Virus record (IMG/VR): IMGVR_UViG_2695420662_000003
Coordinates: 1 to 64,000 of that record
Strand: one strand, 5' to 3'
From: a virus
Taxonomy: Duplodnaviria > Caudoviricetes
Length of the DNA stretch: 64,000 nt
The notes under the pieces were generated by a model. That model saw nothing but the letters and a program-made list of their open reading frames with translations, was not told the origin of the DNA and searched no databases. Position numbers and translations under genes: made by a program. Positions 4,910 to 55,500 of this stretch are shown in pieces; within the stretch, counting starts at the first letter, position 1; the number at the start of each line of letters is the position of its first letter.

Positions 4910-6877
4910 TTATGTACCCGTATAATATTCTATACTGCTAACATCTGTACTAACTATTAATACGGTATCTACTTTTCCATAATCATCATAAGTATTAATA
5001 TCTTTTAAACCCCATGCTGAGAGTTGCGCAGAGTTTCTACCAAATATTTCTTTTGTTAAATCCTCTAGTTTATTAGAATTTGTTTCTATTATATGTACAT
5101 CTCCGTTTTTCATATTTATTTTCCAATTATACATTCTAACCTCTCCTGTATTTTTTTTATTTTTACTCTTTCATATTTAATTCTCTTTTTATATTTCCAA
5201 CTCTTGTATTGACCTTATCAATAAGATCTATTACGTCATTAGCTGTTAAATCGAAACCATGTTCAGTCATAGTATTATAAACATCCTCTAATTCACTCTC
5301 TATTAACCACAATTGCTTGCATATGTACTCTTTATTCATCTTCTTCATCATCTTCTGTTTCATAATACTCTTCCCGTAATATTCTTCTGCCCAATCCCAT
5401 ATCGCATATTCATCAATTAAAAAAGTCTCAAGATAATCTAATGCTGCCATCTTATTTCTAACTTCTTTTATATAATAATCTTCATTACAATCTAAGTAGT
5501 TCCTTGTGGCTTTTATTATATCTCCCCTTATTTCTGATACTTTAGATTGTATAAAATCTTTTATTACACTTACTTTTTTATCCATCCTAATACCCCCATT
5601 GGTGTTTTATTTCGTTTGTATCTTCATCTACATATATCCAGCAGTCACTCATAAAATCGTCATCCGTACCTTCTCTAACCTTTGGATATATAGTATAGTC
5701 CTCATTAAAATAATCTTCCGATACAATCACTTCAAGTAATCCGTTTGGTGAGTTAAATATACGTCTCCACAACTCATTTCCTGTTATATTATGTTCGATG
5801 TGATGTATCATTTTGTTTATATAATCTTGTATATTCTTATCTACCTTTTCAATATCAAAATTCTTATATGTAATCTTCAATTAATTACTCCTAATTAAAT
5901 TATTGTTTTATTAGTTCTTACTACTTGTTAGACTTACAAAGCCAGGGAATAAGAATCCCCATAAAGGTGTTGCAGATCTAGTTATGTATATTGCCACTGA
6001 TATGGCAACTGCAACAGATATCCAAACTATTGCATATGCCATATACGCTACCATATTTACTTTTGCATTGTCACTCATTTTTTTACCTCCATATAAAAAC
6101 TTATTCTTATTTTGCTTTTGCATTTTTAATTATTTCTTTGATTAACTTTCTGGTATTCTTTCCTATATCTATAATTTCTGAAATAAACCGAAAAATCCAT
6201 ATAAAAATAGCTATTATAGATATTAGTATCCATAAGTGAGTTTTTAATAAATAATACCCATATTACGAATAATAATATTAACATCCAAATTATAGCAACC
6301 CCCCTAATCCAATTATAAAATTCATATGTACACTCCTTAATGGTTATATCTTTGATTTAAGATATTTTTACATACTGTTTTCAACTTACTTTTATCTATA
6401 GTATTTTTATCATGACAAACACCCATACACCATTCAGATATAATTAGTGTCATTAATTGTTCTGAGGATATATTACCTATAATACGCTCAATATAATCTA
6501 TATACTCACTTATAATTCTTTTAAATCCTATCCACTCCCACTTAAAATAATCAACTCCATATTCAGTACCATCTTCATCGTCTATATATGATCCTAATGT
6601 TGAAATCATTATATCTCTTCTATATAAATCTAATAGATTATCCATAATGCCTCCTTATAAAACTCCTCTTTTATGTACTTTACATTTCTTCTAAGTTACA
6701 ATTAACTTTTACTATTTTGAAACCTCTATCTTTTCTTAATCCTTCAAAGTAATACGCCGCCCCATCTAGTGAACTAAATCTTATTGCTTCAACTATATCG
6801 TCATTGTTATCTCTCATAAAATTGCTATTTATAAAATTTCCTTCTCCATCCATTATTGTATAAAATCTCTTTTCCAT
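4910..6877 (-). other. Cluster of small hypothetical ORFs (4910-5134, 5163-5585, 5587-5880, 5911-6123 membrane protein, 6337-6645, 6680-6877)
   Basis: Co-oriented ORFs, most with GGAG-type RBS; no recognisable family. Confidence 0.65.
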
Positions 6878-6984
6878 ATGTACTTATTCTCCTGTTCTAT
6901 ATTTTTATAATGCTCCTGATAAAATCCAAATTTTATGTTCATTTTAAATCATACACCTTAGTAATACCAGTGGTTTCATAATTA

Positions 6985-7211
6985 CTATTTCTTTGGCATT
7001 TCGTATTTATCAATATTTCCTAGATTATTTATCATATTCTCAAATACTTCCTTTGTTCTATCTTCTTTATACTCCCTATATTATTCCAAAATTCATCCTC
7101 GTTTCCAAATCCATAACCAGCTCCAATACTGCATATTCCACCTTTTACAGAATTTAACCAAAAATTCGTCGCCCTCAAAACATGTTTTCTATCTTGACTT
7201 ATTATCCACAT
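6985..7211 (-). pseudogene. Small phage gene with 1-nt frameshift near 7074-7076
   Basis: MWIISQDRK..WNNIG continues in the -1 frame as EYKEDRTKEVF..YEMPKK-stop; span is 227 nt, one short of a whole number of codons. Confidence 0.55.
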
Positions 7212-7283
7212 TATTCAATTCTCCCTCTCATATGTACTTGTAAAGGATTAAGAGTTTTTATTTCCTAACCCTTTACACTAATA

Positions 7284-7312
7284 ATTATATATGAACTTAT
7301 CATACTTGTAAA
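7284..7312 (-). promoter_or_regulatory. sigmaA promoter with 15-bp operator
   Basis: TTTACA-17-TATAAT; TATGAACTTATCATA at 7290-7304. Confidence 0.8.
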
Positions 7313-7318
7313 GCATTT

Positions 7319-8791
7319 TTATAAAATAAATTCATTATTTTTTTCATTCACAATATGTATTTTGTTAGTTCTATTCATTTTACTTAACTCATGTTGTAAT
7401 TCCTCTTTCAGCTCTTCTCTAGCATCCATGTTACCATGATGTAAAACCACCCTACATGAATTATTTAACCCTTTTATCATCTCAATTATTTCTTTTTGTT
7501 GTATATGACTTGAGAAGGTTTTATATTGCTTAATCCATGCATTCTTTTGAAAATCTAATCCTTCTATTTTAACTGTTTTATGTTTTTTATCTGTCATAAA
7601 ATCGCCTAACGTACCATTTCCAACATATCCAGTAAACATGATACAATTTTTTCTATCTTCAACGGTAGATTTTACCCAGTGTACTGAGTGGCCATTTGTC
7701 AAGAATCCTGAACTTGATATAACTATACATGGAAAATCTTTTTTACTTGCATATAATTGTGTGTCTTTAAATTCTTTTATAAACTTAAAGTTTCTCCAGG
7801 ACATTATTTTATTCCAGTATTCTCTATCTTCCTCAGTCAATATTTTTCTATATGTATTATTTATTTCGTTTGTAAGCCTACTGTCTATTATTATGGGTAT
7901 ATTGAATCCTTTATCATTACTAAAAGCCTCATAAAGCATTGTCATCAATACTTGTGATCTGCCAAATGAAAATGTAGGTATTACAACTTTACCCCTATTC
8001 TTGATTACTTGTTTAATAGTCTTTATCATATTTTTACGTTCGTCAATTGCTTCTTGCTTAGTAAAACCTCTTTGTTTACTTCCATATGTACTCTCCATTA
8101 TTATCATACTTGCTTTTGATATCGCAGCATTATCCTCTAAGAACGGCTGGAATTTTTTATTTAATTTACTACCTACATCTCCGGTATATATTATTTTTTC
8201 TACTTTACCAGATACTCTCTTTATAAATAATTCTATCATAGCAGCACCTACAACATGTGAATTAGGTAATAATCTAAATGATAGATTTGAGTCCAATTTT
8301 ATTATCTTATTCATAGGATATACATCTGTATATTTTTGCATTGCTATATGTACATCTGATTCCTTATAAAAGCATTCTACATTCTTATGTTTCTTAGATT
8401 GTAGAGATTCAACATCTCTATTATGAATGAATACACCATCTAATAATAATTTGTAGGCTATTTCTTTTGTTGTTTCATTCATTATTATTCTGCCATTAAA
8501 TTCCCTACTGGATGTTAGAGGTAGACCCATCGAATGATCACAATGTGAGTGAGATATGAATATATATGAGACATCTTTCAAGGGATTATTTTCTATCATA
8601 CGTTTATTTTGTTTATACTCCTCATATTTATCTCCTACACCTTGAATTATACCAAAATCACAAATTATATTCTTTCTAGAATTGATATCTTCACAATAAT
8701 AAGATATATTTACACAACTTCCGGTTACATCTATAGAACTACCACCTGTAAACCTAACTTTGATTTTATCATCTATTTTCTTTTTACCCAT
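7319..8791 (-). CDS. Metallo-beta-lactamase/beta-CASP nuclease (Ysh1/CPSF73-like RNase family)
   Basis: VTGSC, SHSHCDH, HVVGAA, YTGD, MESTYG, PTFSFGRSQ, SSGFL, FSSH, LHHG motifs. Confidence 0.92.
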   Translation of the reverse strand: MGKKKIDDKIKVRFTGGSSIDVTGSCVNISYYCEDINSRKNIICDFGIIQGVGDKYEEYKQNKRMIENNPLKDVSYIFISHSHCDHSMGLPLTSSREFNGRIIMNETTKEIAYKLLLDGVFIHNRDVESLQSKKHKNVECFYKESDVHIAMQKYTDVYPMNKIIKLDSNLSFRLLPNSHVVGAAMIELFIKRVSGKVEKIIYTGDVGSKLNKKFQPFLEDNAAISKASMIIMESTYGSKQRGFTKQEAIDERKNMIKTIKQVIKNRGKVVIPTFSFGRSQVLMTMLYEAFSNDKGFNIPIIIDSRLTNEINNTYRKILTEEDREYWNKIMSWRNFKFIKEFKDTQLYASKKDFPCIVISSSGFLTNGHSVHWVKSTVEDRKNCIMFTGYVGNGTLGDFMTDKKHKTVKIEGLDFQKNAWIKQYKTFSSHIQQKEIIEMIKGLNNSCRVVLHHGNMDAREELKEELQHELSKMNRTNKIHIVNEKNNEFIL

Positions 8792-8811
8792 CGTCTTCCA
8801 CCCTTTATTAT

Positions 8812-9423
8812 TTAGTTTATCTCATCATATTCTTCAGAATTATCAATTCCTAGTTCTATTGCTTCTGTTCTATCAAACCAATAGTCTTTATTATAATTTT
8901 TCTTTAACCATTTATCTGTGATTTTAGTTTTCTCTTTCATTAGTTCTTCTAATTTTTTATTCATACCTTTTATGTCTTTTGCTAATTTCATATGATATGA
9001 TATATTTTGTTGTTGCTCTACTGTATATTGTGCAGTATGATACATTAATTCTGCATAACGACCTACTTCTCTTCTATCACAAGCACATAATAAAAATAAC
9101 CCAGCACTTGCCGCCATTCCATTAGCATATCCGTATATCTGACCTTTGAATCTATCTAAAAGGTCTAACATTTTAAATAAGCTATATACAGAACCTCCAT
9201 TACTAGATATATGTATATGTATAGGATCTGGATGACCATCATTATAGTCAGGTAGATTTAATATCCATTCATAAAACCTATCCTCTAACTCTTCTGTGAA
9301 TTCTTCATTTATAACAAATGTTCTAGGATATTCATCTTTACTAAGTAAATCTTTTAATTCATCCTCAGTAAGTTCTAGTTCTTGTATATTATTTAATTGT
9401 TCCATATGTACGAATTCCTCCAT
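8812..9423 (-). CDS. ClpP-like serine peptidase
   Basis: ISSNGGSV, GMAASAG (Ser), LMYH (His), DYWF..EAIELGID (Asp). Confidence 0.85.
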   Translation of the reverse strand: MEEFVHMEQLNNIQELELTEDELKDLLSKDEYPRTFVINEEFTEELEDRFYEWILNLPDYNDGHPDPIHIHISSNGGSVYSLFKMLDLLDRFKGQIYGYANGMAASAGLFLLCACDRREVGRYAELMYHTAQYTVEQQQNISYHMKLAKDIKGMNKKLEELMKEKTKITDKWLKKNYNKDYWFDRTEAIELGIDNSEEYDEIN

Positions 9424-9442
9424 AATTTATATTTAATATGTA

Positions 9443-9825
9443 CTAATCCTCTAATCTTCTACCTCTTAAATCTATAAACACGTCTTTTGTATGTTCTTTT
9501 ATAAAATCATCTTGACAGTCTGTATCGCAAAATATTAATTCTTCTCCGCCCATATAGCTAAATACTGGATAGTGTTTTTCTGTATCTAATATCTCGCCAC
9601 ATGAATCACAATAATGTTTTAAACTCATTAATTTTTACCCCCTGGTATTAAAGTTAGTACGCTGCCAAAGAAATCCTTTTGTATATATGTAAGTTCGCCA
9701 TACTCATCTCTTACAAGATAAGAATCACCCATTTCTGAAAATATTTCATATGTATAACCTTCCATAAGTTCTACTGCATCAAAATCACTGTTATCTATGC
9801 ATTTTGCAAATTTTCTATAATCCAT
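9443..9825 (-). other. Two small ORFs (9443-9628 Cys-rich zinc-finger-like; 9628-9825 hypothetical)
   Basis: CDSCG..FCDTDC in first ORF; co-oriented and coupled. Confidence 0.6.
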
Positions 9826-9830
9826 ATGTA

Positions 9831-10400
9831 CTATTCCTCATCTTTCTTTTTCACTCTAATTTTACTTTTATTACAATATGCTATTGCGCAGCCGAGTGCA
9901 TCATATAAATCGTCTGTTTTAAATTTATTATATTTCTTTGAAAATTCCCCTGCATCATAATATGTATTTCTTATGTATCTTGCAACCATTTCTTTATCAG
10001 AACCACCACGCTTAAATAAGTTAGCCCTAACTTCAGTAGGCTTTAAATGATGTATATTAACACCGTTATGTTTCCCTATGTATATAATCGCACCCTTAAC
10101 CTTTGATAATGTTAATCCTGTTTTTGGGTTACAACCTATGTATTGATCCTCAATTATGAAATCAGTTATATTATGTTTTTTTGTTATCTCATCTAACCTA
10201 CATGCTAAATAGTATAGCCTTTCATCTTCAGATACATTTGCAAAGAAGTATGTGTAATCTAAATGTTTTTTACTTCTAGGTGACAATTCTTTCCCCTCTG
10301 TTACTACTCTATCTACCTCAATTATTTCTCCATCTTTTATAACACAATATCCGGTACTGGCCAATGATAAATCTAATCCTAATAAATTAATATTATTCAA
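9831..10400 (-). CDS. ruvC: RuvC-family Holliday junction resolvase
   Basis: LGLDLSLASTG, IIEDQY, PTEVR, DKEMV, DDLYDALG. Confidence 0.88.
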   Translation of the reverse strand: MNNINLLGLDLSLASTGYCVIKDGEIIEVDRVVTEGKELSPRSKKHLDYTYFFANVSEDERLYYLACRLDEITKKHNITDFIIEDQYIGCNPKTGLTLSKVKGAIIYIGKHNGVNIHHLKPTEVRANLFKRGGSDKEMVARYIRNTYYDAGEFSKKYNKFKTDDLYDALGCAIAYCNKSKIRVKKKDEE

Positions 10401-10768
10401 CCCCTTTTTAACAATTCTTTATCGTTGTATATATTTCCTATAACTTCACATATATCGTGTTTAGCATACAAATCGAAACCACCATCATCTATAAAATACA
10501 TCCCATATCCAAATTTAATACTTCCTACTATATCCTCTTGATAATATTGAGAATGGAATTTAACAATATCTCCTTCGTATATTTCTTTACCTTTAATATC
10601 TTTTAGTCCAGTATATTGCATTAGTATAAAATCATCATTGGTTATAATACCACCAAAAGACTCTTCCATTACATTGCTACCATTCATTCCAAAATCATAT
10701 GTAAGTTCTGCATTGTAATACATTTTATTTTCAGATTTGTTCCACGTTCTAAATTTTATCTCCCTCAT
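10397..10768 (-). CDS. YopX-family phage protein
   Basis: MREIKFR, MQYTGLKD..GKEIYEGDIV, EVIGNIY. Confidence 0.92.
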   Translation of the reverse strand: MREIKFRTWNKSENKMYYNAELTYDFGMNGSNVMEESFGGIITNDDFILMQYTGLKDIKGKEIYEGDIVKFHSQYYQEDIVGSIKFGYGMYFIDDGGFDLYAKHDICEVIGNIYNDKELLKRG

Positions 10769-10769
10769 A

Positions 10770-11015
10770 TTATTTCACCTCTAGATTTCTTATTAAATGC
10801 ATAATTTCATCAATCTTATTACATACGTTTTCAAAGTCTTTTAATTCGGTAGATAATATTTCTCTTTTGACAAAAGATTGTAATGCAACCTTAAAATCTG
10901 TAAAATAACCTATATTTACGTAATTGCTATATTCACCATTCTCTTTTAAGTTTCTTCTTTGTAATACTATATTTAAATCATCTGAAACTATTTTGTATCT
11001 ATCATTTATTATCAT
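10770..11015 (-). CDS. Hypothetical phage protein
   Basis: Coupled ORF with RBS. Confidence 0.65.
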   Translation of the reverse strand: MIINDRYKIVSDDLNIVLQRRNLKENGEYSNYVNIGYFTDFKVALQSFVKREILSTELKDFENVCNKIDEIMHLIRNLEVK

Positions 11016-11250
11016 AATTAATCCTCCATTTTAAATTCATTATATTCTGAGTCTACATCTTTATAAAATTCCTTAGTACAATTTCTTTTATGATATTTAC
11101 ATGTTTCACATTCTCTATCATTACAAAATATGTTGAATAATTGATATTTCGATAATTTATATTTCATTCCAATCCTCCCTAATAAATTTTAATTTAACCT
11201 ATAAATAATTCAATAAGCCTATCTTGATTAATGTTTATGTGTATTATCCA

Positions 11251-12390
11251 CTAGGAAATTTTATTTCTAAATTCATTAAATATTTCATCTAACTCTTCTA
11301 TTCCATCGGAAGATAGCCACTTCCATTCCCATTTATCTTTCCATGCTTTATATTTATCTTCAATACTCAAATCATTCTCTACAAAATTACTTTTTATCTT
11401 CTGAAAAGTACAACTATTATCTATAAATCTTTTAGTTATAGAATTCACTAGTATTGGAGTAGCATTTGCATATTTAGTATTAACTGTAACCAGTTCTTCT
11501 TGCGTAGACACCGGAATCGCTTTATCCCCATGCTTTTCTTTAAACTCCACATAAATCTTCTCACCTATTTCGGCATCTTTTTCCTCATATCTCCAATCAC
11601 TTACTATATATCTTACATCTAACGCATCTTTATCAATTAATTCATTTAAACGAAAATTATTTTGCTCTTTCCACATTCTTGATGTAGTGTGATATATATC
11701 GTAACTATTTACTAAGTCTCTATCTCTACCTATATTTAAGTATTTTGGTAAAATATCATATCCGTATGACAATTCATCGTTGTCACCTATAAACAAACCA
11801 TTTACGAATAATTTACCCTTGAATTTATCATCTAGTAATATATTTCCGTATTTTGATTTTAATAAATTTTTCTTATATGTACTTTGTAAATGTAAGCATC
11901 TTTGTATTAATTCTTTATATATATCAATATTTATACCTTCTATTTCGATAGTTAAATTATTGTTAGGAATCTTCTTCCATATATGCTCTGTTTCAACATA
12001 TATAGTTAGTACCTTTTCACCTTCATATCTTCTAGATTTGACTAATTTAGAAGTCCACACCTCCCTTTTACCATAATTATATATTGTTACATTATATCCT
12101 AGTCTAGTTAATACTAATAATGCTATTTTATACCCTTCTCCAAATTGACCTATGGTATCCTCATCATTTTCCTTTGAAGTATAGCCTAGTAATAAAGTTT
12201 TCTTTTGCAATACTGAATTCTTATTCGATATGATTAATTTATTATTACCATCGTACTCTATACTCATATCATTATCCTCTACTTGTTTTTCTTGATCTAT
12301 AGCATTTTGTATTAATTCTCTTAGTGACTCTTGCACTCCCCATGTATTTGCATAACCACTAGTTAAACTTAACTCAAATTTTTGTTTCAT
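11251..12390 (-). CDS. GHKL (HATPase_c)-type ATPase domain protein
   Basis: LRELIQNAID, LLLGYTSK, IGQFGEGYKIA motifs. Confidence 0.8.
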   Translation of the reverse strand: MKQKFELSLTSGYANTWGVQESLRELIQNAIDQEKQVEDNDMSIEYDGNNKLIISNKNSVLQKKTLLLGYTSKENDEDTIGQFGEGYKIALLVLTRLGYNVTIYNYGKREVWTSKLVKSRRYEGEKVLTIYVETEHIWKKIPNNNLTIEIEGINIDIYKELIQRCLHLQSTYKKNLLKSKYGNILLDDKFKGKLFVNGLFIGDNDELSYGYDILPKYLNIGRDRDLVNSYDIYHTTSRMWKEQNNFRLNELIDKDALDVRYIVSDWRYEEKDAEIGEKIYVEFKEKHGDKAIPVSTQEELVTVNTKYANATPILVNSITKRFIDNSCTFQKIKSNFVENDLSIEDKYKAWKDKWEWKWLSSDGIEELDEIFNEFRNKIS

Positions 12391-12418
12391 TTTAACATCT
12401 CCCTATGAAATTACAGTT

Positions 12419-12979
12419 TTAAGTTAATTTTTTATTTATCCAAGCAACATCTAATGTCTTTGGATTTATATGTAATATATTTTTATTATGTTTTAATGCA
12501 TAGTTTATACAGTTCCAAGTTCCACCTTTTTTAATTCCATCCCAACATGCTATAATGTAATCTGAGTTGTCTACCATGAATTGATTTCTTAACTGCATTT
12601 TAGCAGCACTATATTCCCCTACTACGTTACCCCTAGGCTGATATCCTTCTATCTGATCTACATAATATAAATTATTTGCGATTTCTTTATAATCATTATA
12701 TTTATCTCTATCAGATTTAAACCACTTACAATCTTGTTTTCTAAATGGTATAGCCAGATTATTTTCTATGTCATATATACGACTTAATTGTCCAACTTGT
12801 TCAAAGGCCATCATATCGAACCCTATTGCTCCACCACTTAAAAACTCATTTACTCCACACTTTTTAATTAAGTTCTCGCACAGTTGATATAATAATCTAT
12901 TTAACTGATGATATTGTCTGTTATTCAAATTATAGCCATATAATTTATTAGGTCTGTGACCTGTAAAAGAACATCTCAT
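12419..12979 (-). CDS. SLOG-superfamily protein (YspA/DUF1273-like)
   Basis: FTGHRP, SGGAIGFD, RNQFMVDNSD, WDG..GGTWNC. Confidence 0.88.
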   Translation of the reverse strand: MRCSFTGHRPNKLYGYNLNNRQYHQLNRLLYQLCENLIKKCGVNEFLSGGAIGFDMMAFEQVGQLSRIYDIENNLAIPFRKQDCKWFKSDRDKYNDYKEIANNLYYVDQIEGYQPRGNVVGEYSAAKMQLRNQFMVDNSDYIIACWDGIKKGGTWNCINYALKHNKNILHINPKTLDVAWINKKLT

Positions 12980-13176
12980 ACTAAATTAATCCTCCGTATT
13001 CAATTTTCTAATTCCTAATACTAAAATTCCAATTACGATCAAACTCGGAATCCATATTAAACCCATCATATGCCAAAACGTTGAATTAAACGTTAAATCC
13101 AATATATTCATTTTTAATTCTCCTATCATATGTACTGTATAAGGTTAAGAAATCGTTGTCTTAACCTTATATTTAT

Positions 13177-13205
13177 ATTGTATGATAAGTTCATACTGTT
13201 GTCAA
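13177..13205 (-). promoter_or_regulatory. sigmaA promoter with 15-bp operator
   Basis: TTGACA-17-TACAAT; TATGATAAGTTCATA at 13181-13195; 13-bp perfect hairpin just downstream. Confidence 0.85.
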
Positions 13206-13213
13206 TTATTATT

Positions 13214-15238
13214 TTATAATATTTCAATATTTTTTATTATTTGATTCTTCCATGTTATTATGTTAACTCCTTGAGTATTTCTAGTTGATTTAGTAGTTGT
13301 ATCTTTTAAATCTATAACTTTTTCTCTACCATCAGTCACAGTAAGCTTTAATTTTACATCGTCATCTTTGAATGTAAGTATATCAAATACTTCATTATTA
13401 CTTAATGAATTTGCAAGTTTAGATCTCATTTGTTTGGTTGCAAATGATGATATATCTACTTTGGCAAGTTTATTATTTTTATATATTACACATATGTACT
13501 TATTACCTTCATTTAATATAGACATTCCTAATACATCACACCCTATTACATTAGGCAGATATTGACCTAGATTGCTAAGTTTATCCTCTTGTAATGTATG
13601 CAATTTAAACTTATAACAACATAAGTCTGATCCAAATACTAATAATTCGTCCTTATTATTGCATTCTAATACAGTTTTAATGCTGTCTCCGTCTTTAAGT
13701 TTATTATTACCTTTATTAGATATAGATTTTACCTTTTTAAAATATCCTGATTCCGTTAAATAACATACGCAATTATAGTCATCGACTAATAATTCTTCAA
13801 CTTTTGTTTTATTTTCTTCCACATCTATAATAGGAGTTTTTCTATCATAGTGATATTCTCTACCTAATTCCCTTAATTGAGTAGCTAGTAACTCCCTTAA
13901 TTGATCTTCATCGGTTAACAAAATATCTATATGCTTTATTTTATCTTCTAAATCTTTTATCTTTTTCAACTGTTTATCTATATTATTTTTTGATATATTC
14001 CTTAGTTTCATATTAGAAATATATTCAGCTTGATCCAATGTTAAGTCGAAGACTTCTTGGAGATTTTTTATTATATCCTCATCCGTTTTTGATTTTTTTA
14101 TTATATCTATACATTTATCTATATCTATTAATATCTTTTCTAAGCCTCTTAAGAATAGCAACTCTTTTGATATTTGTTCTTTATCATATGTAAATATCCT
14201 TTTTACGGTAGACAACCTAAACTCACACCAATGTTCAAGTATTTGCTTTACTCCTAATACTTGAGGTTTGTCATTGTGTAATACTGTAAAATTACAATTA
14301 AAAGTATCCTGTAATGTCGTCATTGTAAATAACTTATCTACAACGGATTGTTTGTCTGCGTTCTTCTTAACCTCTATTGTTAAGTTAAGTCCATCTCGTC
14401 CTGTAAAGTTATTTACATCTGTGATCTCTTTAAATTTCCCTAATTTAATTAAATCCAATACCTTCTCCTCAATTTGTTCTACTGTAGTTGTATAAGGTAT
14501 TTCTGTAAATATTATATTATTATCTTTGAAATGATATTTACCTCTAAGTCTAAACGAACCTCTGCCCGTATCATGTATTTGCTTTGCAATTTTATCATCT
14601 TTAATTATAAAACCATATGTACTAAAATCTGGATACATTACGAAAGATTCCTCTTTCAACATTACTCTTGCAGTATTCTCACATAACTCCTGCATATTAT
14701 AACCACATATCGTGGATGCTACACCTACCGCAACACCTTTATTAGCATTAGCTAAAACCAATGGAAATGATACAGGTAGCACACATGGTTCTTTCATAGA
14801 GTTATCATAATTATCTTTGAAGTCTACACTATTTTTGTTTATTCCATTCAGTAACTCTTTGGTTACTTTTGCCAATCTCATTTCTGTATATCTTGATGCA
14901 CCAGGTTGCACATCTCTCATGTTTATAGATGAAAACGAACCTTTCCCATCTATAAGATTTAAGTTCACACTATCATTTGCTAGTCTTACCGCAGCACCAT
15001 AAACAGACGTATCTCCATGAGGCGAAAGTCTCATAACGCTCGAACATGCTTTTGCTGATTTTGTTCTATTCTTATCGTGTGTAAGTTTATCTAAATACAT
15101 AGAGTATATTAATCTTCTATGTATTGGTTTACATCCATCTCTTAAATCAACTATCGCTCTGTCTGTAATTGTATATTTTGCATATTCCATACAATATTGA
15201 TTTAAAAAGTCTTCCATTTGCACTATTTTTTTATTCAT
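13214..15238 (-). CDS. Type IIA topoisomerase A subunit (GyrA/ParC family)
   Basis: DRAIVDLRDGCKPIHRR, PHGD, ASRYTE catalytic Tyr; start moved to ATG 15238 after GGAGG; no clear GyrA-box. Confidence 0.93.
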   Translation of the reverse strand: MNKKIVQMEDFLNQYCMEYAKYTITDRAIVDLRDGCKPIHRRLIYSMYLDKLTHDKNRTKSAKACSSVMRLSPHGDTSVYGAAVRLANDSVNLNLIDGKGSFSSINMRDVQPGASRYTEMRLAKVTKELLNGINKNSVDFKDNYDNSMKEPCVLPVSFPLVLANANKGVAVGVASTICGYNMQELCENTARVMLKEESFVMYPDFSTYGFIIKDDKIAKQIHDTGRGSFRLRGKYHFKDNNIIFTEIPYTTTVEQIEEKVLDLIKLGKFKEITDVNNFTGRDGLNLTIEVKKNADKQSVVDKLFTMTTLQDTFNCNFTVLHNDKPQVLGVKQILEHWCEFRLSTVKRIFTYDKEQISKELLFLRGLEKILIDIDKCIDIIKKSKTDEDIIKNLQEVFDLTLDQAEYISNMKLRNISKNNIDKQLKKIKDLEDKIKHIDILLTDEDQLRELLATQLRELGREYHYDRKTPIIDVEENKTKVEELLVDDYNCVCYLTESGYFKKVKSISNKGNNKLKDGDSIKTVLECNNKDELLVFGSDLCCYKFKLHTLQEDKLSNLGQYLPNVIGCDVLGMSILNEGNKYICVIYKNNKLAKVDISSFATKQMRSKLANSLSNNEVFDILTFKDDDVKLKLTVTDGREKVIDLKDTTTKSTRNTQGVNIITWKNQIIKNIEIL

Positions 15239-15260
15239 ATGTACTGTTCCTCCAGAATCA

Positions 15261-16049: not shown

Positions 16050-16051
16050 CT

Positions 16052-46562: not shown

Positions 46563-46564
46563 AT

Positions 46565-47113
46565 TTATTCACCTCTTAGGTTTATTTCATCTGATATACC
46601 TGCCTCAAATGTTTTCTCTGTTGAATCCGATGTTACTATGAACTTATCTGCATTCATTGCTTTTCTGTTTGTTATTGCTGCCATTATGAATTTTTTCTTA
46701 ATATATGTATTATACTCCCTTATCTTATCCGATATCGTTGCTTGATTCTTGTCAAATGTTTTTCTATTTGCTGACAATTCTCTTTGAAGCGTTGTGTATA
46801 CCGTTGAATCTAAATTTGGATTTGACTCATGAATAACCTTAAATAATAAGTTTGTATCTTGATTTCTACCTGATATTAAATCTGTATATATTCTCTCGAA
46901 ATCATCTGCATACATATCAGTTACTTGCACCATTTCTTTTGCGCTTTTCACCATACTATCGTAATTTGATTTATTTGCTATGTATTGAGCCTGAATTGAC
47001 TCTTCTAATTCTACTGCTACATTTCTATGACTTAATAATGTAAATCCGCTTACTAATCCTGAGATCGTTAAAGTTCCTGCTAAAACCAATCCTATTAAAC
47101 ATCCTTTTTTCAT
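46565..47113 (-). CDS. LemA-like membrane-anchored helical protein
   Basis: N-terminal TM, LEESIQAQY, LQRELSANR..IREYNTY pattern. Confidence 0.6.
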   Translation of the reverse strand: MKKGCLIGLVLAGTLTISGLVSGFTLLSHRNVAVELEESIQAQYIANKSNYDSMVKSAKEMVQVTDMYADDFERIYTDLISGRNQDTNLLFKVIHESNPNLDSTVYTTLQRELSANRKTFDKNQATISDKIREYNTYIKKKFIMAAITNRKAMNADKFIVTSDSTEKTFEAGISDEINLRGE

Positions 47114-47379
47114 AATATTCCTCCTATAAAATAATACTTTTATTTACTTTTAGTTATATTAAACATTATACTCATAAACTAATAATCTTTATCCTCTCTA
47201 TTTTCATATGAAATTCTCGCTATTTTAGATAAGCATTCCATGCATATAAAAATTTCACCATTGTAATCTTTATATACAGGTTTAAACCCTACGATAACTC
47301 TATCTATTTCTTCTTGATACTTCCCACACAAACTACATTTAAAAATATCATTTTTCATTTGATACCCCTTATAAAATTT

Positions 47380-47838
47380 TTATTTACTTACCCTAACACT
47401 TCCACCTGCATCTATATCACCAACTTGACCTCCTGCAACAACACAACTACCGCCACAGTCTATGTCTCCATTTACTTTACCTTCAACGGTGCAAGATCCT
47501 CCGCAATCTACTCCGCCTTCTACATCTCCATTAACTGTCATAGAACCTTCAGAATAAGCACCTTTGGATATATTGCCATTTATAGTAGCAGCACATTTAC
47601 AATCTAATTTATTTACGTCACCTTCTATAGTTATTGCAATCACTTCTTTATTTTCTAATTCTTTATCTTCGTACCTTTTACCATTTACATATAAAATTCC
47701 ATTATTTACTGATATATTTGCATTATTTGGTACTTTTATAGTTTTACCATTTATATTAACTTCTCCATTAGTCATAGATACTGAACTATTATTTCCCATT
47801 GATATGCAACTTCCAAAATTTACGTATTTACTAAACAT
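47380..47838 (-). CDS. Beta-helix repeat protein (bactofilin-like)
   Basis: Tandem G.V.G.[VI]D[CA]GGS..V repeats. Confidence 0.65.
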   Translation of the reverse strand: MFSKYVNFGSCISMGNNSSVSMTNGEVNINGKTIKVPNNANISVNNGILYVNGKRYEDKELENKEVIAITIEGDVNKLDCKCAATINGNISKGAYSEGSMTVNGDVEGGVDCGGSCTVEGKVNGDIDCGGSCVVAGGQVGDIDAGGSVRVSK

Positions 47839-48083
47839 AATTTAATCTCCTTTAATATTAATTTTTATATGTACTTACCACTTAAAAGTAAAATTTTATC
47901 CTATTCTAAATATTTATCTATATCTTTAAACATATCTTCATTCTTTGGAATTTCTTTAAACGTCGCTAAATATCTCTTATCTTCAAAATCCAATAATATT
48001 TTATTTCTATCGCAATAACTAGTACCACACCAAATATCTTGTAACATATTTAACATTCCACTTAACTTATGTACCATATTTAT

Positions 48084-50614
48084 CTATACCTCCATGTACT
48101 CTTCTATTGATATGAATGCTTGTTCAAATCCGTTATTATTTACTTCAACTTTTAAACACTCTACTTCAAAAGTTCTTGATACACAATAATCTTCATCTCC
48201 AAAGAATACATATGTATCATATTTATTCCCTTCTTTTAAATTAGTTAAGGTTCCAGTACTGTGAATATTTTTTATATTATATATTTCATTAAAGACTCTG
48301 TCCATTTCCCACATATTTTTGTTGTTAATCCAAGTTTTATATTTCATTTTGATTTCTCCTTTTATATGATAAAATTAAGATTTTATCTTGTTTCATCTAT
48401 AAGTTTATTTATTATTCTTTTATATGTTTCATTCTGCTGTGATAATATTTGTTTTACTTCATCCTTATCCCATAATGCCATTCTATTTATTAACTTCATA
48501 GTTTCTTTATTCAATTCATCTAACTTCTTATTTATAACGTGTTTTTCTAAATCGTTAATCATAAAAATACCTCCTTTTTAAAATTTTATTTAGTTTTTAC
48601 TATTCCATCAAAAATTCTTTATAGTTGGGAAGTTTTATATATCCTTCTTTTAAATTCTCATCTAGTAATCCACTCATTATTTCAAAAATTTTAATGTAAT
48701 TCAATGCATCTCTAATATTTCTCTTATATCCTTGAATTATTCCGACATTATAGTCTACTATGCAAAATATACTTCTTTTATTGCATTTAATCTCATATAT
48801 GCGATATATACCTTTGTCTGTAGCTATACCTTTTATAAACTTGCTTTTCACTTTATGCTTTTCAAGCTTTAAATCTTCTAATCTTATATTATACTCCGTA
48901 ACTCTTTGGAATTTCTTGTTTAAAAGCTCTCTATCTTTCTTATCCATTTTATACTCTCCTTTTAAAATTTTCATTTTATTTATATTATTTTCTTGTTCTT
49001 GTTTTTCCACATTTAGTGCATTTAAATCTTAAATATCCATTTCCTCGTTCAAGTAATACCCATCTATGAGAACAAAATAAACCCATACTATTCTCTCCTT
49101 CTATTTTCTTTTAAAATCTGTATTCTATCTGCTTTTAAAAATCACTTTTTACTATCCTCTCTATTTCATCCCAACTCGGAATATGATCTAATTCCTCATA
49201 TATTTTCGTAACTGGAGTTCCATACTTCCACCAATAAACTATCATTGCATAACTTTTCGGATGCTCCATTACTGAAAAGCTAATCCTCTTATTATCTATA
49301 TTTCTTATCCTAAAATCCCAAGTTGACAAATAAACATCTTCAATTTTATCATCTATTAAATAATGTCCTCTTCTAAATCCATGTCGCTCCATATATGGCA
49401 ATTTATACTTCTTATCTTGTTCTAATTGATGTTTATATCTAAAGTTTTCTATATAGTTGTCATATATGTGCATATCTTTTGCATAAATCATTCTTTACCT
49501 CTTAAACTTTCAATATGATTAATTATAGATTCTACCAATCCTATTTCTGTCTGTTTTACTATCGCATCCTCTACATCATCTATGTAGGTTTCTTCTATTT
49601 CGCTTTTTAAACTGTATAAATAATCAAGTACTTCGTTTATCATAATTCCCTCCAGATCCCAATAAAAGAACGATTTTATTCAATTTTTATTTTATATGTA
49701 CTTTACTACCAATTATTAACCCCCATCAATGCCACTATAATCCATGCTATTTGTGTAAATATTGACAATCCACCCATGCATGTTTTTATTATAGTTAAAG
49801 CACCCAATATATACATAATTATTTTCAATATTTTTAGTATATCTAATTTCATATGTACTTATTCTCCTTTATCAAATTCATATTTCATACCTGTATTTCC
49901 ACAACGCTTGTTCTGACAAATACATAAACTCTGATCTTCTCTAACTTTATCTTCAAATACTTTTACATTATTTGATTTGCATTTTCTACATCTAACCATT
50001 ACTTAACCCACCTAAATGTTGTTCTACCACACTTCTTACAAACATACAGACTATTCCCATAATGTAATTCTAAATCTTCTTCTGGGCATCCAAATAAATG
50101 AATCATCCAATAAACAAAACTCTTTAATTCTCTCATATGTACTCTACCTTTCAAATCTCTTTAATCTTTGAGTTTTAGACTTCCTATACTCAATAAAAAT
50201 CTCCTGTTCTTTTCTTGCTTTTGCAATCCTATCTTTCTTTTGTTTCTCCATAAAAGCGTTTACAAATTCATCTTTAGAAACTACTATATTCATTTTTTAT
50301 CCCCTTTTTCATATGTACTTAAGATTTAATTCATCTTATACTTATATTGTATGATAAGTTCATACCATTGTCAATCATTATTTTTAAAATTTTTATTAAA
50401 TTGTTGATGCCTTTATTTTTAGTTCACACTCTTTACATTCTCTATTTAGATTCTCTAATATTTTATCGATCATGTCAGTAGTGCCCCTAAATAGTTTATG
50501 TGTTGGTTTTTCTAAATCATTCGCCACAAACACAGATATAAGCCTACATTCCTCATATTCTCTAATTTGTCCTTTAATCTGTTTTAACTTGATTTCTAAT
50601 TCTTTTATATTCAT
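48084..50614 (-). other. Array of small hypothetical ORFs (48084-48347, 48600-49010, 49135-49491, 50396-50614 and many under 60 aa)
   Basis: Co-oriented micro-ORFs with RBS, several Cys-rich. Confidence 0.6.
50346..50374 (-). promoter_or_regulatory. sigmaA promoter with 15-bp operator
   Basis: TTGACA-17-TACAAT; TATGATAAGTTCATA at 50350-50364. Confidence 0.85.
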
Positions 50615-50773
50615 TTTTAATCTCCCTCATATGTACTAATTTAGAGTTCAGAAAACTCTATACTACCACCCATTTACATGAGTAGCAGCAACAACCTTCT
50701 GAACTTGTTGATAACCCGTAGTTATTCATTCAAGAGGATTGTAAGATTTTGTATGAGTATATCTTACATTTAT

Positions 50774-50802
50774 ATTATATGATTTTACTTTCTAAATATC
50801 AA
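50774..50802 (-). promoter_or_regulatory. sigmaA-type promoter
   Basis: TTGATA-17-TATAAT. Confidence 0.65.
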
Positions 50803-50822
50803 CTAATTTTTAAATATTTTGC

Positions 50823-51635
50823 TTATTTTTTCTTTGGATATGGATTGCCGCAGCACATATCTCCTTCTGGGCATTTACCAAATTGACATGATGCACCTAG
50901 CATTCTACTTAATAATGGAGATATCTCTTCTATTAAATCAACCATTCCCCATGCTAAATCATGAATTTCGCCCTGCGCCCTACGACAACATCTATGTTTG
51001 CAGAAGTTTATAAGAGTTCTAAGGTTCATAGTGCATATTATTTTAGTCTCACAGGCATTAGGTAATACTGATCTAGCATCCTCTATTGCCATTTTAATAA
51101 ATGATCTATATTTATCTTTGTATTTATCTTTCATAACATCTTCTAAAAGTTCTATAGGTGTATCTGGCGAATATATCTCTTTTTCTTCTACTAAATAATC
51201 ATATATAAAAAATTCTAATAATTCTCTCGATATACGTACGTAACTCTCGAAAGCATTATTCATCGCCTTCTCAAATTTTTGTTTAATATATTTTACTCCA
51301 CCTATTCTTTTAGGTACTACATACTCAAATGATTTATCTAAATTTACATAACGCTGCGATTGTTGCGAATATGATGCTATTCTATGTCTTACCAATTGAT
51401 GTGTAAGCGACCTAGACACTCCTTCTATTGCAAATGTAAATGAAACATGTTCTAATGGGCTTTCATGCCCCATTGATACTAACATATTTACAAATTTTTC
51501 TATTGCCTCTGGAGTCTGTTTTTCCATTAAATCCTTTATACTAGATGGCGAATAACATAACTTTCCCGCAACTGAGATTATTAATTCTGGATTCATTGTG
51601 TGACTTAATAATTTTATATTTAATTTAGTTTCCAT
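50823..51635 (-). CDS. thyX: FAD-dependent thymidylate synthase
   Basis: GHESPLEH, SRSLTHQLVRHRIASYSQQSQRY, EDARSVLP, MNLR, AQGEI. Confidence 0.96.
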   Translation of the reverse strand: METKLNIKLLSHTMNPELIISVAGKLCYSPSSIKDLMEKQTPEAIEKFVNMLVSMGHESPLEHVSFTFAIEGVSRSLTHQLVRHRIASYSQQSQRYVNLDKSFEYVVPKRIGGVKYIKQKFEKAMNNAFESYVRISRELLEFFIYDYLVEEKEIYSPDTPIELLEDVMKDKYKDKYRSFIKMAIEDARSVLPNACETKIICTMNLRTLINFCKHRCCRRAQGEIHDLAWGMVDLIEEISPLLSRMLGASCQFGKCPEGDMCCGNPYPKKK

Positions 51636-51654
51636 ATGTACTTATTCCCCTTTA

Positions 51655-52566
51655 TTATATATTATTTCTTTCTGCTATTTCTATTGTTTGTTCTATTAAA
51701 CTTAATACAGTCATTTGTCCAATTCCTCCTGGAACTGGCGTAATGGAACAATTCTTCTCAACCAATCTATCATAATCTGATTTAGATACATCCCCACACA
51801 TCTTACCATTTTCATCAAAGTTAATAGATATATCTATTATAGTTGTTCCAGGTTTAAAATCCTTTGATTTAAAGAAATTAGGTTTACCTATTGCAGTAAC
51901 TACAATATCCGAATTCCATACCTTATTCATTAAATCGTTTGTTTTACTATGTGCTATTGTAGGCGTAGCATCATTTTGTAACATAAGCATACTCAGTGGT
52001 TTACCTACGATATTACTTCTGTTTATGATTAATACATCCTTACCTTTAACGTCTATATTATTCTCTTTTAACAGTGTCATCACACCTTTTGGCGTACATG
52101 CTATATTACCATCTTGCCCAAGTATTAATTTCCCCATATTTTCACTTGTAAAGCCATCTACATCTTTTTTAGGATCTATTAAAGATGTTAAATAATCCTC
52201 GTCTAAGTGTTTAGGTAGTGGTAATTGCAGCAATATAGCAGTAACCCATGCATTATCATTTAATACTTTTATTTTATGTGCTATTTCCGATTGAGATATA
52301 TCTTCTCTTAGATGTATAATTTCTGATTCAATTCCAACTTCTTTACATTTATTTATCTTATTTGCAACATATTTACCTGATGCAAAATCATTTCCAACTC
52401 TAAGTATTACTAATTTCGGTTTTTTATTTAACTTACTAACTCTAACTTTTAACTCTTCTATTTTATCTTTTACTAATTCTTTCGCCTCTAATATCTTCCC
52501 TCTATTCATCACTGTCTCCTTATTTATATGTGCTGCTATATAATCTGTTGTTTGTATTTTCTTCAT
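51655..52566 (-). CDS. folD: Methylenetetrahydrofolate dehydrogenase/cyclohydrolase
   Basis: LLQLPLP, KDVDG, CTPKG, RSNIVGKP, GDV, ITPVPGGIGQMT. Confidence 0.95.
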   Translation of the reverse strand: MKKIQTTDYIAAHINKETVMNRGKILEAKELVKDKIEELKVRVSKLNKKPKLVILRVGNDFASGKYVANKINKCKEVGIESEIIHLREDISQSEIAHKIKVLNDNAWVTAILLQLPLPKHLDEDYLTSLIDPKKDVDGFTSENMGKLILGQDGNIACTPKGVMTLLKENNIDVKGKDVLIINRSNIVGKPLSMLMLQNDATPTIAHSKTNDLMNKVWNSDIVVTAIGKPNFFKSKDFKPGTTIIDISINFDENGKMCGDVSKSDYDRLVEKNCSITPVPGGIGQMTVLSLIEQTIEIAERNNI

Positions 52567-52588
52567 ATATAATCCTTACCGTTAAAAC

Positions 52589-55500
52589 CTATATTTTATT
52601 TACTTTTAAATCATCCTTTATTAAAAACTCCCTTATTTCATTGCAAGTTCCATAATAATCTTTCCCTGCTATCATTGCTCCATGAAGTGTATCATTTGGT
52701 CTAAAAGGTTCTTTTATTCTTGTTTTTAACTCATCTATTAATTCTATTAAATCCCAATTTTGATAATCATATCCTTCTACGTATTGACGTCTCATATTTT
52801 AACCCCTCCATATGTACATAAAATTTATTTTTTATCATATTTATCTTCAAATTCTATAACCGAAAGTAAACAAGATATTTTACCTTTGGCACTATGTAAA
52901 CTTTTAATGGAATTTTCCCCTGAACACCATACGTCATTTAAATCACTCATTATCGACTGTAATATACATTTAACTGAATTTTCATTTACTCTCATTTTTT
53001 CTCCTGTTTTCACCAATAAAAAGATTATTTTATTTATTGTTATGATTTATTTATTTTGTCTTAATATAGTTCTATATTTTAAACATTTTTTAAGAAGTCT
53101 ATCAAAATTTTTACCTTTTCCTATACAAGAACACCCTTCTTGTTGTTTTTTATCTATTACAAACGATAACTCCTCCTCTGCTAATAAAACACTTATCATT
53201 TTTTGACCATTTATTTCTTTTATTCTATCCATAATATTACCTCTGCTTTTTTATTTTTTCTTCTTCATATTTAAACTGTTCTAAATACTCTTTGCTTAAA
53301 GGCTTCTTCATAATTTAACTCCTTTCGATAAAAATTATATTTTATTACCTGGTAAAACTTTTAAAATCTTTACATGACTCAGAAAAATAATCCATATGAG
53401 AATTACATTTATTACACCATTCGGCCTGGTAATTATCACAAGTTCCACAGATAGCACTTTCATCATAAACCTTAGATTCTTTTATTTCTAAGATATATAT
53501 TTCTCCTATTATATTGTCATTTATCCACTCATATAACTCTTCTTCTGAATTAAGTTCAACTTCAAATTCTTCTGAACCTCCCATAAACTCATATTTCCTA
53601 TATTTTAATGTAAATAGTGTCTTATAATGCTTAAAATACTTTAATTCATCTTTTTTAAATCTCATATTTACCTCCTTTCTAAATAAATACTATCTTTTAT
53701 GATTGTTCTAAATATTGATTATAAATCCTATTCTCACATTCTTGACATAGTCCTTGATGTAAAAGATAGTAGCGATAATCTAATTCTTCTCCGCAAATAT
53801 CACAATATTTCATTTCTTTCATTTTTATATCCTCCTATTGAATGAATTCCAATTTTCATCTAATTCATACTCTGGACAAAAATTCTCATTTTCTTTTATT
53901 ATATCATCGGCTCTTTGGGGTAAAGTAAAACCATGACATATTATTAATCCTGTAGATGTCATATATCTTCCATTTTTACAATTATAACATTTTTGATTAT
54001 ACATAACTCCTCCTATTAGTAAATGAAAGTTCTATTTTATTTAAAATACTTTTCATAATCCTTTGTTGTTGCGTCTATATTATTTATATCTAAATCATCA
54101 TCCCATTCAAATTCTACAGTCTCACTATTACCAACGTGATATATGCAATCTGTACGATCTGCTAAATAGTTTATAAAACTATCGACTGTCTCAAATTGAT
54201 TATTATAATCCACTATATACAACTCTATTTTATGTAATTTTTCCATATGTACCTCCGCTTAAATATATTACCTTTTATACATCCATCTTTTCTATGCTAA
54301 TTATTCTATCTATATTTAACACTATCTCGCTATTGTCTTGATCTCCAGTTAACACAATGAATTTATTTCCTATATATATTTTTTTTAATAAATTCATCAA
54401 CAGTTTTATAATTTCCTATATGAACTGCTGTTACACCATCCGTAAGCGCTATTTTTAATTTCATGTTACTTCCTCCTTGAATTATTTTTTAATTTTATAC
54501 TTATACTTTAAATTTTCCAATATATAATCAAATATTACTTCTTCCATGTATCTTCTTCTATCGTCTTCACTCATATCTTCAAATTCATTATCATCTATTT
54601 TCATTTTAAATTTTTTGAATTCTCCAACTGAATACCCCATACAATTTATAGTGAATTCTATATTCATATTAGTCCTCCTTATAAAATCATCATTTTATCC
54701 TTATATATTCTCTGTATTATCGCATTTGTTGCACATAACGTAATATCCATTTGTAGTAAGATATTCATCTTCTCCGTCCCAACCCCAATCAAAGTCTTCT
54801 TTAACACTTACATCTCTACTTCCACAATTTAAACATTCTATTTTGAAATTCTCCAATACAATTACCTCCAACTTGAAAATACTATTTTATCTAAGTTTCT
54901 TACCACACATTGGGCAAAAATTTATCATCTTACCATACAAACTGTCATCTTCCCCACCTCTTTTATTTTCCTCCAAGTAACTACAAGTGTTTATTTTTAT
55001 CATGTGATTATTTTTTATTCCGTATAACAGTGGTTTTCTTTCTGTCCATCTCCCATTACAATATTTGCAACCGTCATAGTCTAGATTTTTTAAATATATT
55101 ATAAGATCTTTCATATACTTAATTCTGTCTCCAAAGTTTTCATTAAATTTCTTTATATTAACACTTTTACTCCTTTTTATATTTAATCTCCCTAATTCAT
55201 CTTCCAATAAGGCTATCATAAAGTTTACCTGTTCCCTATTCATATTTCACCCCTTATTTATTCCCTATAAGTATCATATATTTCTATAATCTTAGTTATA
55301 TCTTTATCCAGTTCATAATTTATATGATCTAACTCACAAGTTATATTTTCTATTACCAAACGACCCACCGCATCACTTAATCTGTCTAACTCTTCAACAT
55401 TTCTAATTTCTATTATCGACAATACATGTTCCTCATCATAATAGTCTTTTACGTGTATATATAACATATTGAAATCCGATAACTCATTTTTATATTCTCT

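Follow-up and report, generated by a model that had tools for sequence, protein, structure and literature searches.

The window analyzed here, a 64,000-nucleotide stretch of DNA, is the first 64 kb of IMG/VR record IMGVR_UViG_2695420662_000003, a 130,836-bp Caudoviricetes genome with direct terminal repeats and 28% G+C. Across it recurs a 9-mer, GTACATATG, whose core is the hexamer cut by MazF-type endoribonucleases of the Bacillota, and two MazF genes are carried by the same genome; judging from the sequence, the phage probably cuts its own messages to control them. Genes were called by our own scheme of codon usage and Shine-Dalgarno (SD) sequences, giving 179 genes on which all class counts of motif sites below depend. 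Gene orientation is minus from ~1 to 76 kb and plus from ~83 kb onward, and the sense strand is purine rich across the element. The left arm encodes replication and nucleotide metabolism (a DnaE-type polymerase, DnaB-like helicase, topoisomerase subunits, NrdD, ThyX, dUTPase, ligase, methylase, and an AAA_24 protein). Plasmid hallmarks are also present, namely a Rep3 initiator, an actin-like (ALP/ParM-type) partition protein, tyrosine recombinases, an FtsK-like ATPase, TnpB, and a GIY-YIG nuclease (window 955-2513 and 336-689, both on the plus strand; genome 64228-65325, 68662-69597, 73533-74783, and 81592-83629). The element is a phage-plasmid.

The window contains 40 exact copies of GTACATATG, spanning 2557..60798 and all lying on the minus (sense) strand, against an expectation of 0.75 and a largest value of 4 in 100 dinucleotide shuffles. 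The whole genome contains 70 copies, of which the minus arm carries 50 and the plus arm 20, with no antisense copies (mononucleotide expectations of 0.86 sense and 0.49 antisense); the complement, CATATGTAC, is absent from the sense strand. Alignment of the 70 copies with 60-nt flanks revealed no flank conservation beyond weak preferences for A at −1 and for A/T at −3 and −26, indicating that the 9-mer stands alone as a short word; a longer repeat as its source was thereby ruled out. The exception is a set of three promoter cassettes that are near-identical over ~60 nt. Among single-base variants, positions T1 to T7 were almost invariant and the outer positions behaved as preferences (position 0: G 70, T 15, A 11, C 4; position 8: G 70, A 22, T 15, C 1). 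On the transcribed strand, UACAUA occupies positions 1 to 6 of the motif in all 70 copies. On the sense strand, the 9-mer in RNA form, GUACAUAUG, was 81-fold enriched (70 observed, 0.86 expected) and UACAUAU 7.2-fold (190 versus 26.3), while UACAUA followed by A, C, or G showed no enrichment (65 versus 60.9). Antisense UACAUAU occurred at expectation (46 versus 46.3). An earlier sequence-only reading of this DNA had taken UACAU as the conserved unit; the actual unit is the 9-mer.

That reading had also described two positional classes of sites at translation starts. In class A, the ATG of the motif is the start codon and an SD lies 3 to 12 nt upstream of that ATG; in class B, the motif lies directly 5′ of the SD, 13 to 22 nt before the start. 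Both classes exist, and every site listed for them is present within a few bases of where it had been placed, under gene names that hold. Nevertheless, 22 of the 40 window sites fall in neither class, and three class A sites had been missed. In the window, nine sites are class A, nine class B, seven otherwise intergenic, and 15 intragenic; the corresponding counts among the 70 genomic sites are 15 to 16, 10 to 13, 17 to 19, and 24 to 26, with 40 to 45 in neither class, the ranges reflecting two ways of calling.

The class A sites of the window, all on the minus strand, supply the start codons of their genes. They include those of topoisomerase subunit A (Pfam DNA_topoisoIV; 15236..15244), an N6/N4 DNA methylase (23992..24000), thyX (Thy1; 51633..51641), and a 65-amino acid (aa) open reading frame (ORF) at 6875..6883, where the SD is followed by the motif. 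At 9823..9831, the G of the motif is shared with the TAG stop codon of the upstream gene, and the copy at 54244..54252 (GGAGGTACATATG) starts a 69-aa ORF. The three sites absent from the earlier description belong to a ClpP-like gene (site 9403..9411; gene 8812-9405), a 48-aa ORF (49850..49858), and a 45-aa ORF (50134..50142). Two variants on the same strand are placed similarly: GTACATATA at 28646..28654 overlaps the start of nrdD, and TTACATATG at 42835..42843 supplies the start of the AAA_24 (Sak4-like) gene.

The class B sites, likewise on the minus strand, frequently accompany hairpins and promoters. The site at 4830..4838 adjoins the dut SD on its 5′ side, 14 nt ahead of the start; 7229..7237 follows an 11-bp hairpin and a sigma-A-type promoter; and 13127..13135 is preceded by a 13-bp hairpin (z −8.2) and precedes a 41-aa ORF outside the gene calls. 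At 32970..32978, TACATA starts 28 nt after the −10 element of a TTGACA-17-TATTAT promoter, and the same 28-nt distance from a −10 element is found at 50310..50318. The remaining sites are 50628..50636, directly 3′ of a hairpin; 52809..52817 (GTACATATGGAGGGG); 58845..58853, before a PcfJ-like gene; and 59113..59121, within a cassette comprising a consensus promoter (12/12 match), hairpin, motif, and SD, with near-identical counterparts at genome 66880 and 85979.

The other two groups, again on the minus strand, are given here by their highest coordinates. The 15 intragenic exact sites (span 3955..60083) end at 3963, 5328, 8091, 13499, 14622, 18710, 21915, 26344, 30661, 30828, 32447, 36752, 41284, 43487, and 60083; the seven other intergenic sites (span 2557..60798) end at 2565, 6331, 20123, 21584, 31145, 44318, and 60798, with those at 2565, 6331, and 60798 no more than 7 nt after a stop codon. 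Genome-wide, 22 of the 44 nonintragenic sites follow the preceding stop codon by no more than 30 nt and seven by no more than 5 nt; a third position, just after a cistron, is thus common.

Enrichment at start codons did not withstand the control for the ATG contained in the motif for which the sequence-only reading had asked. GTACAT precedes 15 of 143 start ATGs and 29 of 328 other intergenic sense ATGs (Fisher p=0.61), and an excess at starts appears only over coding ATGs (26 of 3149, p=4e-11 versus starts). This indicates that the motif is enriched in noncoding sense sequence generally, and equally so at starts; overlap with the start codon in class A may arise simply because an existing ATG provides three of the nine letters. 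Of the genome, 13% (17.2 kb) is noncoding and contains 44 sites, compared with 26 in the ~114 kb of coding DNA. The intragenic copies are themselves ~28-fold in excess of expectation (26 versus 0.94, with a maximum of 5 in 200 codon permutations), as is intragenic UACAUAU to a lesser degree (116 versus 26.6), and 17 of the 26 use the frame xGU-ACA-UAU-Gxx. At most nonstart sites, the AUG of the motif opens merely 1 to 22 codons.

Several features of the surrounding sequence point to a signal read in RNA. The predicted unpaired probability of the 9-mer has a median of 0.097, compared with 0.028 for 3760 9-mers of the same composition (p=1.5e-17), and this higher predicted openness holds for coding and noncoding sites separately. 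The native context is predicted to be more open than the median shuffled-flank context at 54 of 70 sites. Upstream of the 29 intergenic nonstart sites, the adjacent 36 nt fold better than shuffles (mean z −1.85), with a hairpin of z < −1.5 at 14 of the 29; stems vary in sequence and mostly end 0 to 5 nt before the motif. The hairpin signal is absent at class A sites (mean z −0.11) and intragenic sites (mean z −0.30). At 11 of 45 intergenic sigma-A-type promoter candidates, TACATA starts 26 to 30 nt after the −10 element, and at several more it starts at 21 to 47 nt. Together, the promoter and hairpin data define a recurring unit of promoter, 5′ hairpin, motif, SD, and start codon, in which the motif would lie ~20 nt into the transcript. 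In each of the near-identical ~60-nt cassettes (window 59113-59180; genome ~66880-66940 and ~85920-85990), a sigma-A promoter that matches or nearly matches the consensus is combined with the hairpin GATAAC...GTTATC, the 9-mer, and an SD; the cassettes stand before unrelated genes on both arms.

Sixteen maintenance-like genes totaling 11.3 kb, namely the counter-oriented genes, the plasmid and recombination genes, both mazF genes, and orf95 (described below), carry no UACAUA in their bodies against 6.4 expected by codon permutation (P=0.002, a generous value, the set having been picked by function and orientation after the per-gene counts were known). Seven UACAUA are found on the antisense strands of these genes, and in three of the 16, mazF-2 included, a site lies no more than 45 nt ahead of the start. 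Among the remaining genes, UACAUA occurs at 1.64 per kb, with at least one copy in 61 of the 74 that encode 150 aa or more.

A Pfam search identified two PemK/MazF genes in the genome (E 1e-34 to 1e-35; cut-off 23.1 bits). Gene mazF-1 (window 19238..19597, minus; 119 aa) scored 114.8 bits for PemK_toxin, is followed by an intrinsic terminator, and has a coding body free of UACAUA; mazF-2 (genome 72490-72843, plus) scored 116 bits. A match to the PHROG ‘MazF-like growth inhibitor’ was also obtained (E 8e-31). Among solved proteins, MazF-1 is closest to EndoA/MazF (E ~1e-39), and it matched structures of Bacillus and Staphylococcus (7bxy, 4hke, 4mdx, and 4mzm) at E values of 1e-37 to 1e-40, with 4mdx/4me7 at 1e-38 and 4mzm at 1.5e-37. 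By our own count of the alignment with 7bxy, 68 of 111 aligned positions are identical (~61%). The GG-x-RP and AAIT-x-Q stretches are kept in MazF-1, where GGIRPVL and AAITSQ align with GGVRPVL and AAITAQ, and MazF-2 carries SGVRPVL and AAITSS. The catalytic Arg and Thr of EndoA (Arg25 and Thr48) are kept in both phage proteins. MazF-1 and MazF-2 share 64% identity, and the best 80 bacterial homologs of MazF-1, mostly from Clostridia, are 59 to 65% identical to it. On homology, the phage proteins are placed in the Bacillota EndoA/MazF family that cuts U^ACAUA. The proposal of the sequence-only reading that a sequence-specific RNase of MazF type reads the motif is thus supported by the U^ACAUA core together with these two proteins.

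Neither gene has a recognizable antitoxin partner. Upstream of mazF-1, a 92-nt gap separates it from the unrelated gene orf95 (window 19690..19977, minus), which has its own promoter, is free of sites, and encodes an acidic 95-aa protein; no known family, Atlas neighbor, or paralog was found for it. It is a possible MazF inhibitor. Gene mazF-1 may have a weak promoter of its own, and mazF-2 is transcribed against its neighbors from its own promoter, its upstream region containing no same-strand ORF of 30 aa or more. Both units look like autonomous promoter-bearing inserts, which would fit expression from the resident element. A variant, AUACAUAUA, lies directly before the SD of mazF-2 (genome 72464-72472, plus; ~8464-8472 in L018), a placement suggesting that MazF-2 may act on its own mRNA. 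By domain content, another candidate for RNA processing is encoded by the phage at window 7319-8791 (minus), a 490-aa metallo-beta-lactamase protein (beta-CASP/RMMBL; RNase J/CPSF type) assigned to a PHROG of unknown function.

These observations lead us to favor, as reasonably likely, a reading in which the phage's own RNase acts on built-in MazF sites to silence or dismantle lytic messages. The word GUACAUAUG would be a cis-acting RNA site for MazF-1 and MazF-2, written into the sense strand of lytic genes in 5′ leaders after a protective hairpin, in the interval between SD and AUG, after stop codons, and within coding regions. The phage enzymes would cut single-stranded RNA after the first U of UACAUA, a specificity and cut position taken from homology and the literature. 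Cleavage in a leader would remove the 5′ hairpin and leave a 5′-OH, at a class A site it would separate the SD from the AUG, and within a gene it would destroy the message. Active MazF would thereby hold the lytic program down post-transcriptionally while the site-free maintenance functions continue. The direction (silencing) and its timing we infer; immunity in the plasmid-prophage state and temporal shut-off would both be consistent. A more specific version is possible, and we advance it only tentatively: an antitoxin-less phage MazF with an evolved 7- to 9-nt specificity (G-UACAUAU-G) may confer post-transcriptional immunity by cutting every lytic message while being near-harmless to the host, in which case lytic growth would need an anti-MazF, orf95 being one candidate.

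A number of results weigh against the silencing of lytic messages by phage MazF. That RNA is cleaved at the motif is entirely inferred, and the after-the-fact choice of the 16 site-free genes, noted above, applies here as well. Just 39 of 89 small lytic-arm genes contain the site. Enrichment is limited to UACAUAU and the G-flanked 9-mer, and the hexamer alone is not selected. Moreover, U7, G0, and G8 are preferred also in intragenic UACAUA (114, 60, and 63 of 164, respectively); their persistence inside genes indicates that the preference is not a by-product of ATG as a start codon. A plain hexamer cutter would therefore be insufficient; the phage enzymes would need a longer recognition sequence, or a second factor would have to take part. 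When predicted accessibility was compared with the mean of shuffled flanks, the difference was not significant (Wilcoxon p=0.125). No recognizable antitoxin was found, MazE and RHH domains (PF04014 and PF01402) being unmatched genome-wide. Finally, the dense 9-mer was found in no relative searched, whether retrieved by DnaE, MazF-1, or motif pattern.

The nearest named relatives of the element are large Clostridioides phages and phage-plasmids with DnaE 39 to 51% identical; a nucleotide search of GenBank phages gave no match, and contigs of four DNA runs, 80 to 99% alike, cover parts of window 4000-23999, mazF-1 included. Among the DnaE relatives, the C. difficile phages pCD1602_4 and LIBA6276 contain zero copies of the 9-mer in 43 kb each, and 13 IMG/VR loci and 28 metagenome loci contain zero or one copy each. 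Also counting against the favored reading, 38 other MazF-encoding viral contigs lack the 9-mer, bar one antisense copy in L049, and show at most a mild excess of UACAUA, so a MazF gene alone does not predict the motif. In 80 bacterial loci encoding MazF-1 homologs, eight copies were found in 1.2 Mb, counting both strands. A scan of IMG/VR for the class B cassette pattern gave no matches. AATAAGTACATATG is present in at least 116 IMG/VR stretches, with a single match in each of the 80 listed, and the densest record among the matches listed holds three copies in 51.9 kb.

The comparison yielded other strand-specific patterns. In three metagenome contigs with DnaE 45 to 51% identical (L060, L076, and L087), TACATA is absent from the coding strand and occurs 8, 11, and 5 times, respectively, on the other, possibly a MazF-site avoidance that would be the opposite strategy to that of this phage. 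Among the IMG/VR relatives by DnaE, AGGTAAAATGT is strand-specific and over-represented in L008 (7 to 9 copies), as are TTGACTTTTAA and TTTACTTTTAATA in L009, L014, and L015 (5 to 8 copies); these are perhaps the promoter or leader words of those phages. Two other MazF-encoding viral contigs, L055 (3615 and 15069) and L057 (4019), carry single class A-like arrangements, GGAGGA-TA-TACATATG, at start codons, with overall motif enrichment absent from both.

Three candidate origins of the word were rejected: a Chi-like or replication-oriented signal leaves the placement at gene borders unexplained, a restriction-site effect does not account for a strand-specific word, and a link to RNA repair lost its basis as the 392-aa metallophosphoesterase of the phage is an SbcD-type exonuclease and no RtcB was found in the genome.

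The best surviving alternative, which we nonetheless regard as unlikely, is the model of the sequence-only reading, in which the same MazF sites serve differential processing. Class A messages would lose the SD and be silenced or become near-leaderless, class B messages would lose only their leader, post-stop cuts would separate cistrons, and one RNase would thereby reweight expression. The geometry of the 15 to 16 class A and 10 to 13 class B sites fits, insofar as a cut after U1 would part the SD from the AUG in the former and leave the SD on the gene side in the latter, and cistron borders are indeed punctuated, with half of the nonintragenic sites (22/44) within 30 nt after a stop. In addition, if the 4-nt trimming reported for Bacillus subtilis (see below) acted on GU/ACAUAUG, it would leave a 5′-monophosphate AUG, which could explain the conserved U7 and G8. 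Nevertheless, start ATGs bear the motif no more often than other intergenic ATGs, 24 to 26 exact copies and 116 UACAUAU are intragenic, a location at which cleavage could do nothing but destroy the message, and a leaderless start would be pointless at most nonstart sites given the few codons that their AUG opens. Separate selection of the two classes as functionally opposed sets is not supported by these results, given that most sites belong to neither class and the intragenic enrichment is strong. Classes A and B are descriptive, and a functional distinction between them is unsupported. Silencing is favored over differential processing because of the strong intragenic enrichment and the absence of the site from maintenance genes; on this sequence evidence, the pattern appears to fit a general silencing or dismantling of lytic messages better than a differential reprogramming.

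It is improbable, in our estimation, that the word acts at the DNA level, as a phage promoter or initiator (like the T4 late TATAAATA box) or as an oriented binding site for a phage repressor that blocks elongation (like the stoperators of cluster A mycobacteriophages), with the mazF genes a coincidence. The motif is compact, strictly transcription-oriented, and concentrated before genes; it is preceded at some copies by terminator-like hairpins, as at 4838, and exceeds the MazF hexamer, all of which such a signal would accommodate. It would not accommodate the 15 to 16 sites at which the start codon is inside the motif and the SD upstream, where transcription from the motif would lose the SD. 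The motif also lies within the transcript, at a fixed 26 to 30 nt downstream of strong sigma-A-type −10 boxes; hairpins keep their structure despite sequence variation, the motif is in predicted open RNA, and 26 copies are intragenic. Sigma-70 region 2, Rpb1-type, and T7-type polymerase domains were not detected in the genome, the T7-type blank being weak, as its control matched no genome and was uninformative. Finally, UACAUA and two mazF genes in one genome would be left as an unexplained coincidence.

A reader of the RNA other than MazF seems comparably doubtful, whether a translational repressor like T4 RegA, the beta-CASP/RMMBL RNase (7319-8791), or a regulatory RNA with a 9-nt seed: the sense-strand motif in accessible RNA adjoining SD or AUG, a 7- to 9-nt unit longer than the MazF hexamer, and the presence of an RNase J-like beta-CASP protein would suit one, but the invariant core is exactly the MazF site in a genome with two MazF genes, RNase J-type enzymes are not known to be sequence-specific, no co-oriented phage RNA carries the complement since CATATGTAC is never on the sense strand, and no Rfam family was found in the window.

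Silencing of lytic messages by phage-borne MazF, the favored reading, may be set beside several known systems. Cluster A mycobacteriophages keep their lytic genes off through dozens of short, asymmetric, transcription-oriented stoperators spread over their temperate genomes, which are 13- to 14-bp DNA sites bound by the immunity repressor. In contrast, the signals here (open context, 5′ hairpins, and intratranscript position) point to RNA, and the motif points to a nuclease. The E. coli MazF model of leaderless mRNAs resembles the class A geometry, which allows a cut just upstream of the AUG to yield an SD-less message, although that model concerns ACA sites in host mRNAs and the sites here are UACAUA-containing and in phage messages. 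Most of the proposed MazF effects of the leaderless kind, ribosomal reorganization included, are strongly contested according to one preprint (bioRxiv 10.64898/2026.08.06.743204), and translation of cut class A messages is hypothetical here.

The closest enzymatic counterparts are the chromosomal MazF/EndoA proteins of the Bacillota, which share family (~60% identity) and hexamer core with the phage proteins. As described in two preprints, B. subtilis EndoA/MazF cuts only U/ACAUA, leaving a 5′-OH, UACAUA is also preferred by the MazF of Listeria (L. monocytogenes) and S. aureus, and the exact motif sets a narrow, nonlethal mRNA regulon, a further likeness to the present case (bioRxiv 10.64898/2026.08.06.743204; bioRxiv 10.1101/2023.03.12.532304). 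In B. subtilis, the EndoA-generated 5′-OH ends are trimmed by 2 nt, or by 4 nt if U or C follows the hexamer, according to the second (bioRxiv 10.1101/2023.03.12.532304). The chromosomal systems differ in having MazE, a conserved host neighborhood (bioRxiv 10.64898/2026.08.06.743204), and scattered host targets, in contrast to solitary phage-borne genes, the phage's own targets, and a 7- to 9-nt word.

Among phages, the arbitrium phages phi3T and SPbeta together with B. subtilis MazEF are alike in that transcripts of temperate phages are enriched in MazF sites. Two reports describe these transcripts as enriched in UACAU, with host MazF restricting both phages unless phage antitoxin mimics block it, and with MazF activity, modulated by phage proteins, pushing them to lysogeny and restricting lysis (bioRxiv 10.1101/2023.04.27.537455; PMC10769878). 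The RNase there is the host's and the phages contribute MazE-like inhibitors (AimX and YosL), whereas the present phage encodes two MazF proteins and no recognizable MazE; likewise, a raised density of a 5-mer per gene is reported there, compared with 70 exact 9-mers at leaders, starts, and cistron ends here. T4 RegB offers another likeness, as a phage-encoded endoribonuclease that recognizes a short motif at the phage's own translation initiation regions; it cuts GGAG there and inactivates early messages (PMC1702504). RegB cuts inside the SD (GGAG), needs ribosomal protein S1, and is not of the MazF family. In this phage, the motif instead flanks the SD on either side, and it extends beyond early messages to structural (head and tail) messages and into genes.

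The enrichment of MazF sites in temperate Bacillus phages and the cross-talk between phages and MazF are thus already known. In the literature searched, no description was found of such a 9-mer or of self-targeting of a phage by its own MazF. New here are enzymes that are both phage-borne and antitoxin-less, an 80-fold multiplication of the 9-mer with copies placed at leaders, starts, and cistron ends, and maintenance genes free of the site. MazF is usually seen as a host stress or defense factor that phages avoid or inhibit, and this phage appears to do the opposite, carrying the RNase itself and having multiplied its site ~80-fold across the lytic genes. With defined sites and enzymes and a predicted place of cutting, the system is directly testable, and a MazF with 7- to 9-nt specificity, if such it is, may be useful as a tool. 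If confirmed, the arrangement would be a natural, genome-wide, sequence-programmed RNA switch in a phage and would broaden the emerging picture of Bacillota MazF as a precise regulator and not a poison. Should the post-transcriptional immunity tentatively proposed above prove true, it would constitute a nuclease-based counterpart of the phage repressor, with operators written in RNA.

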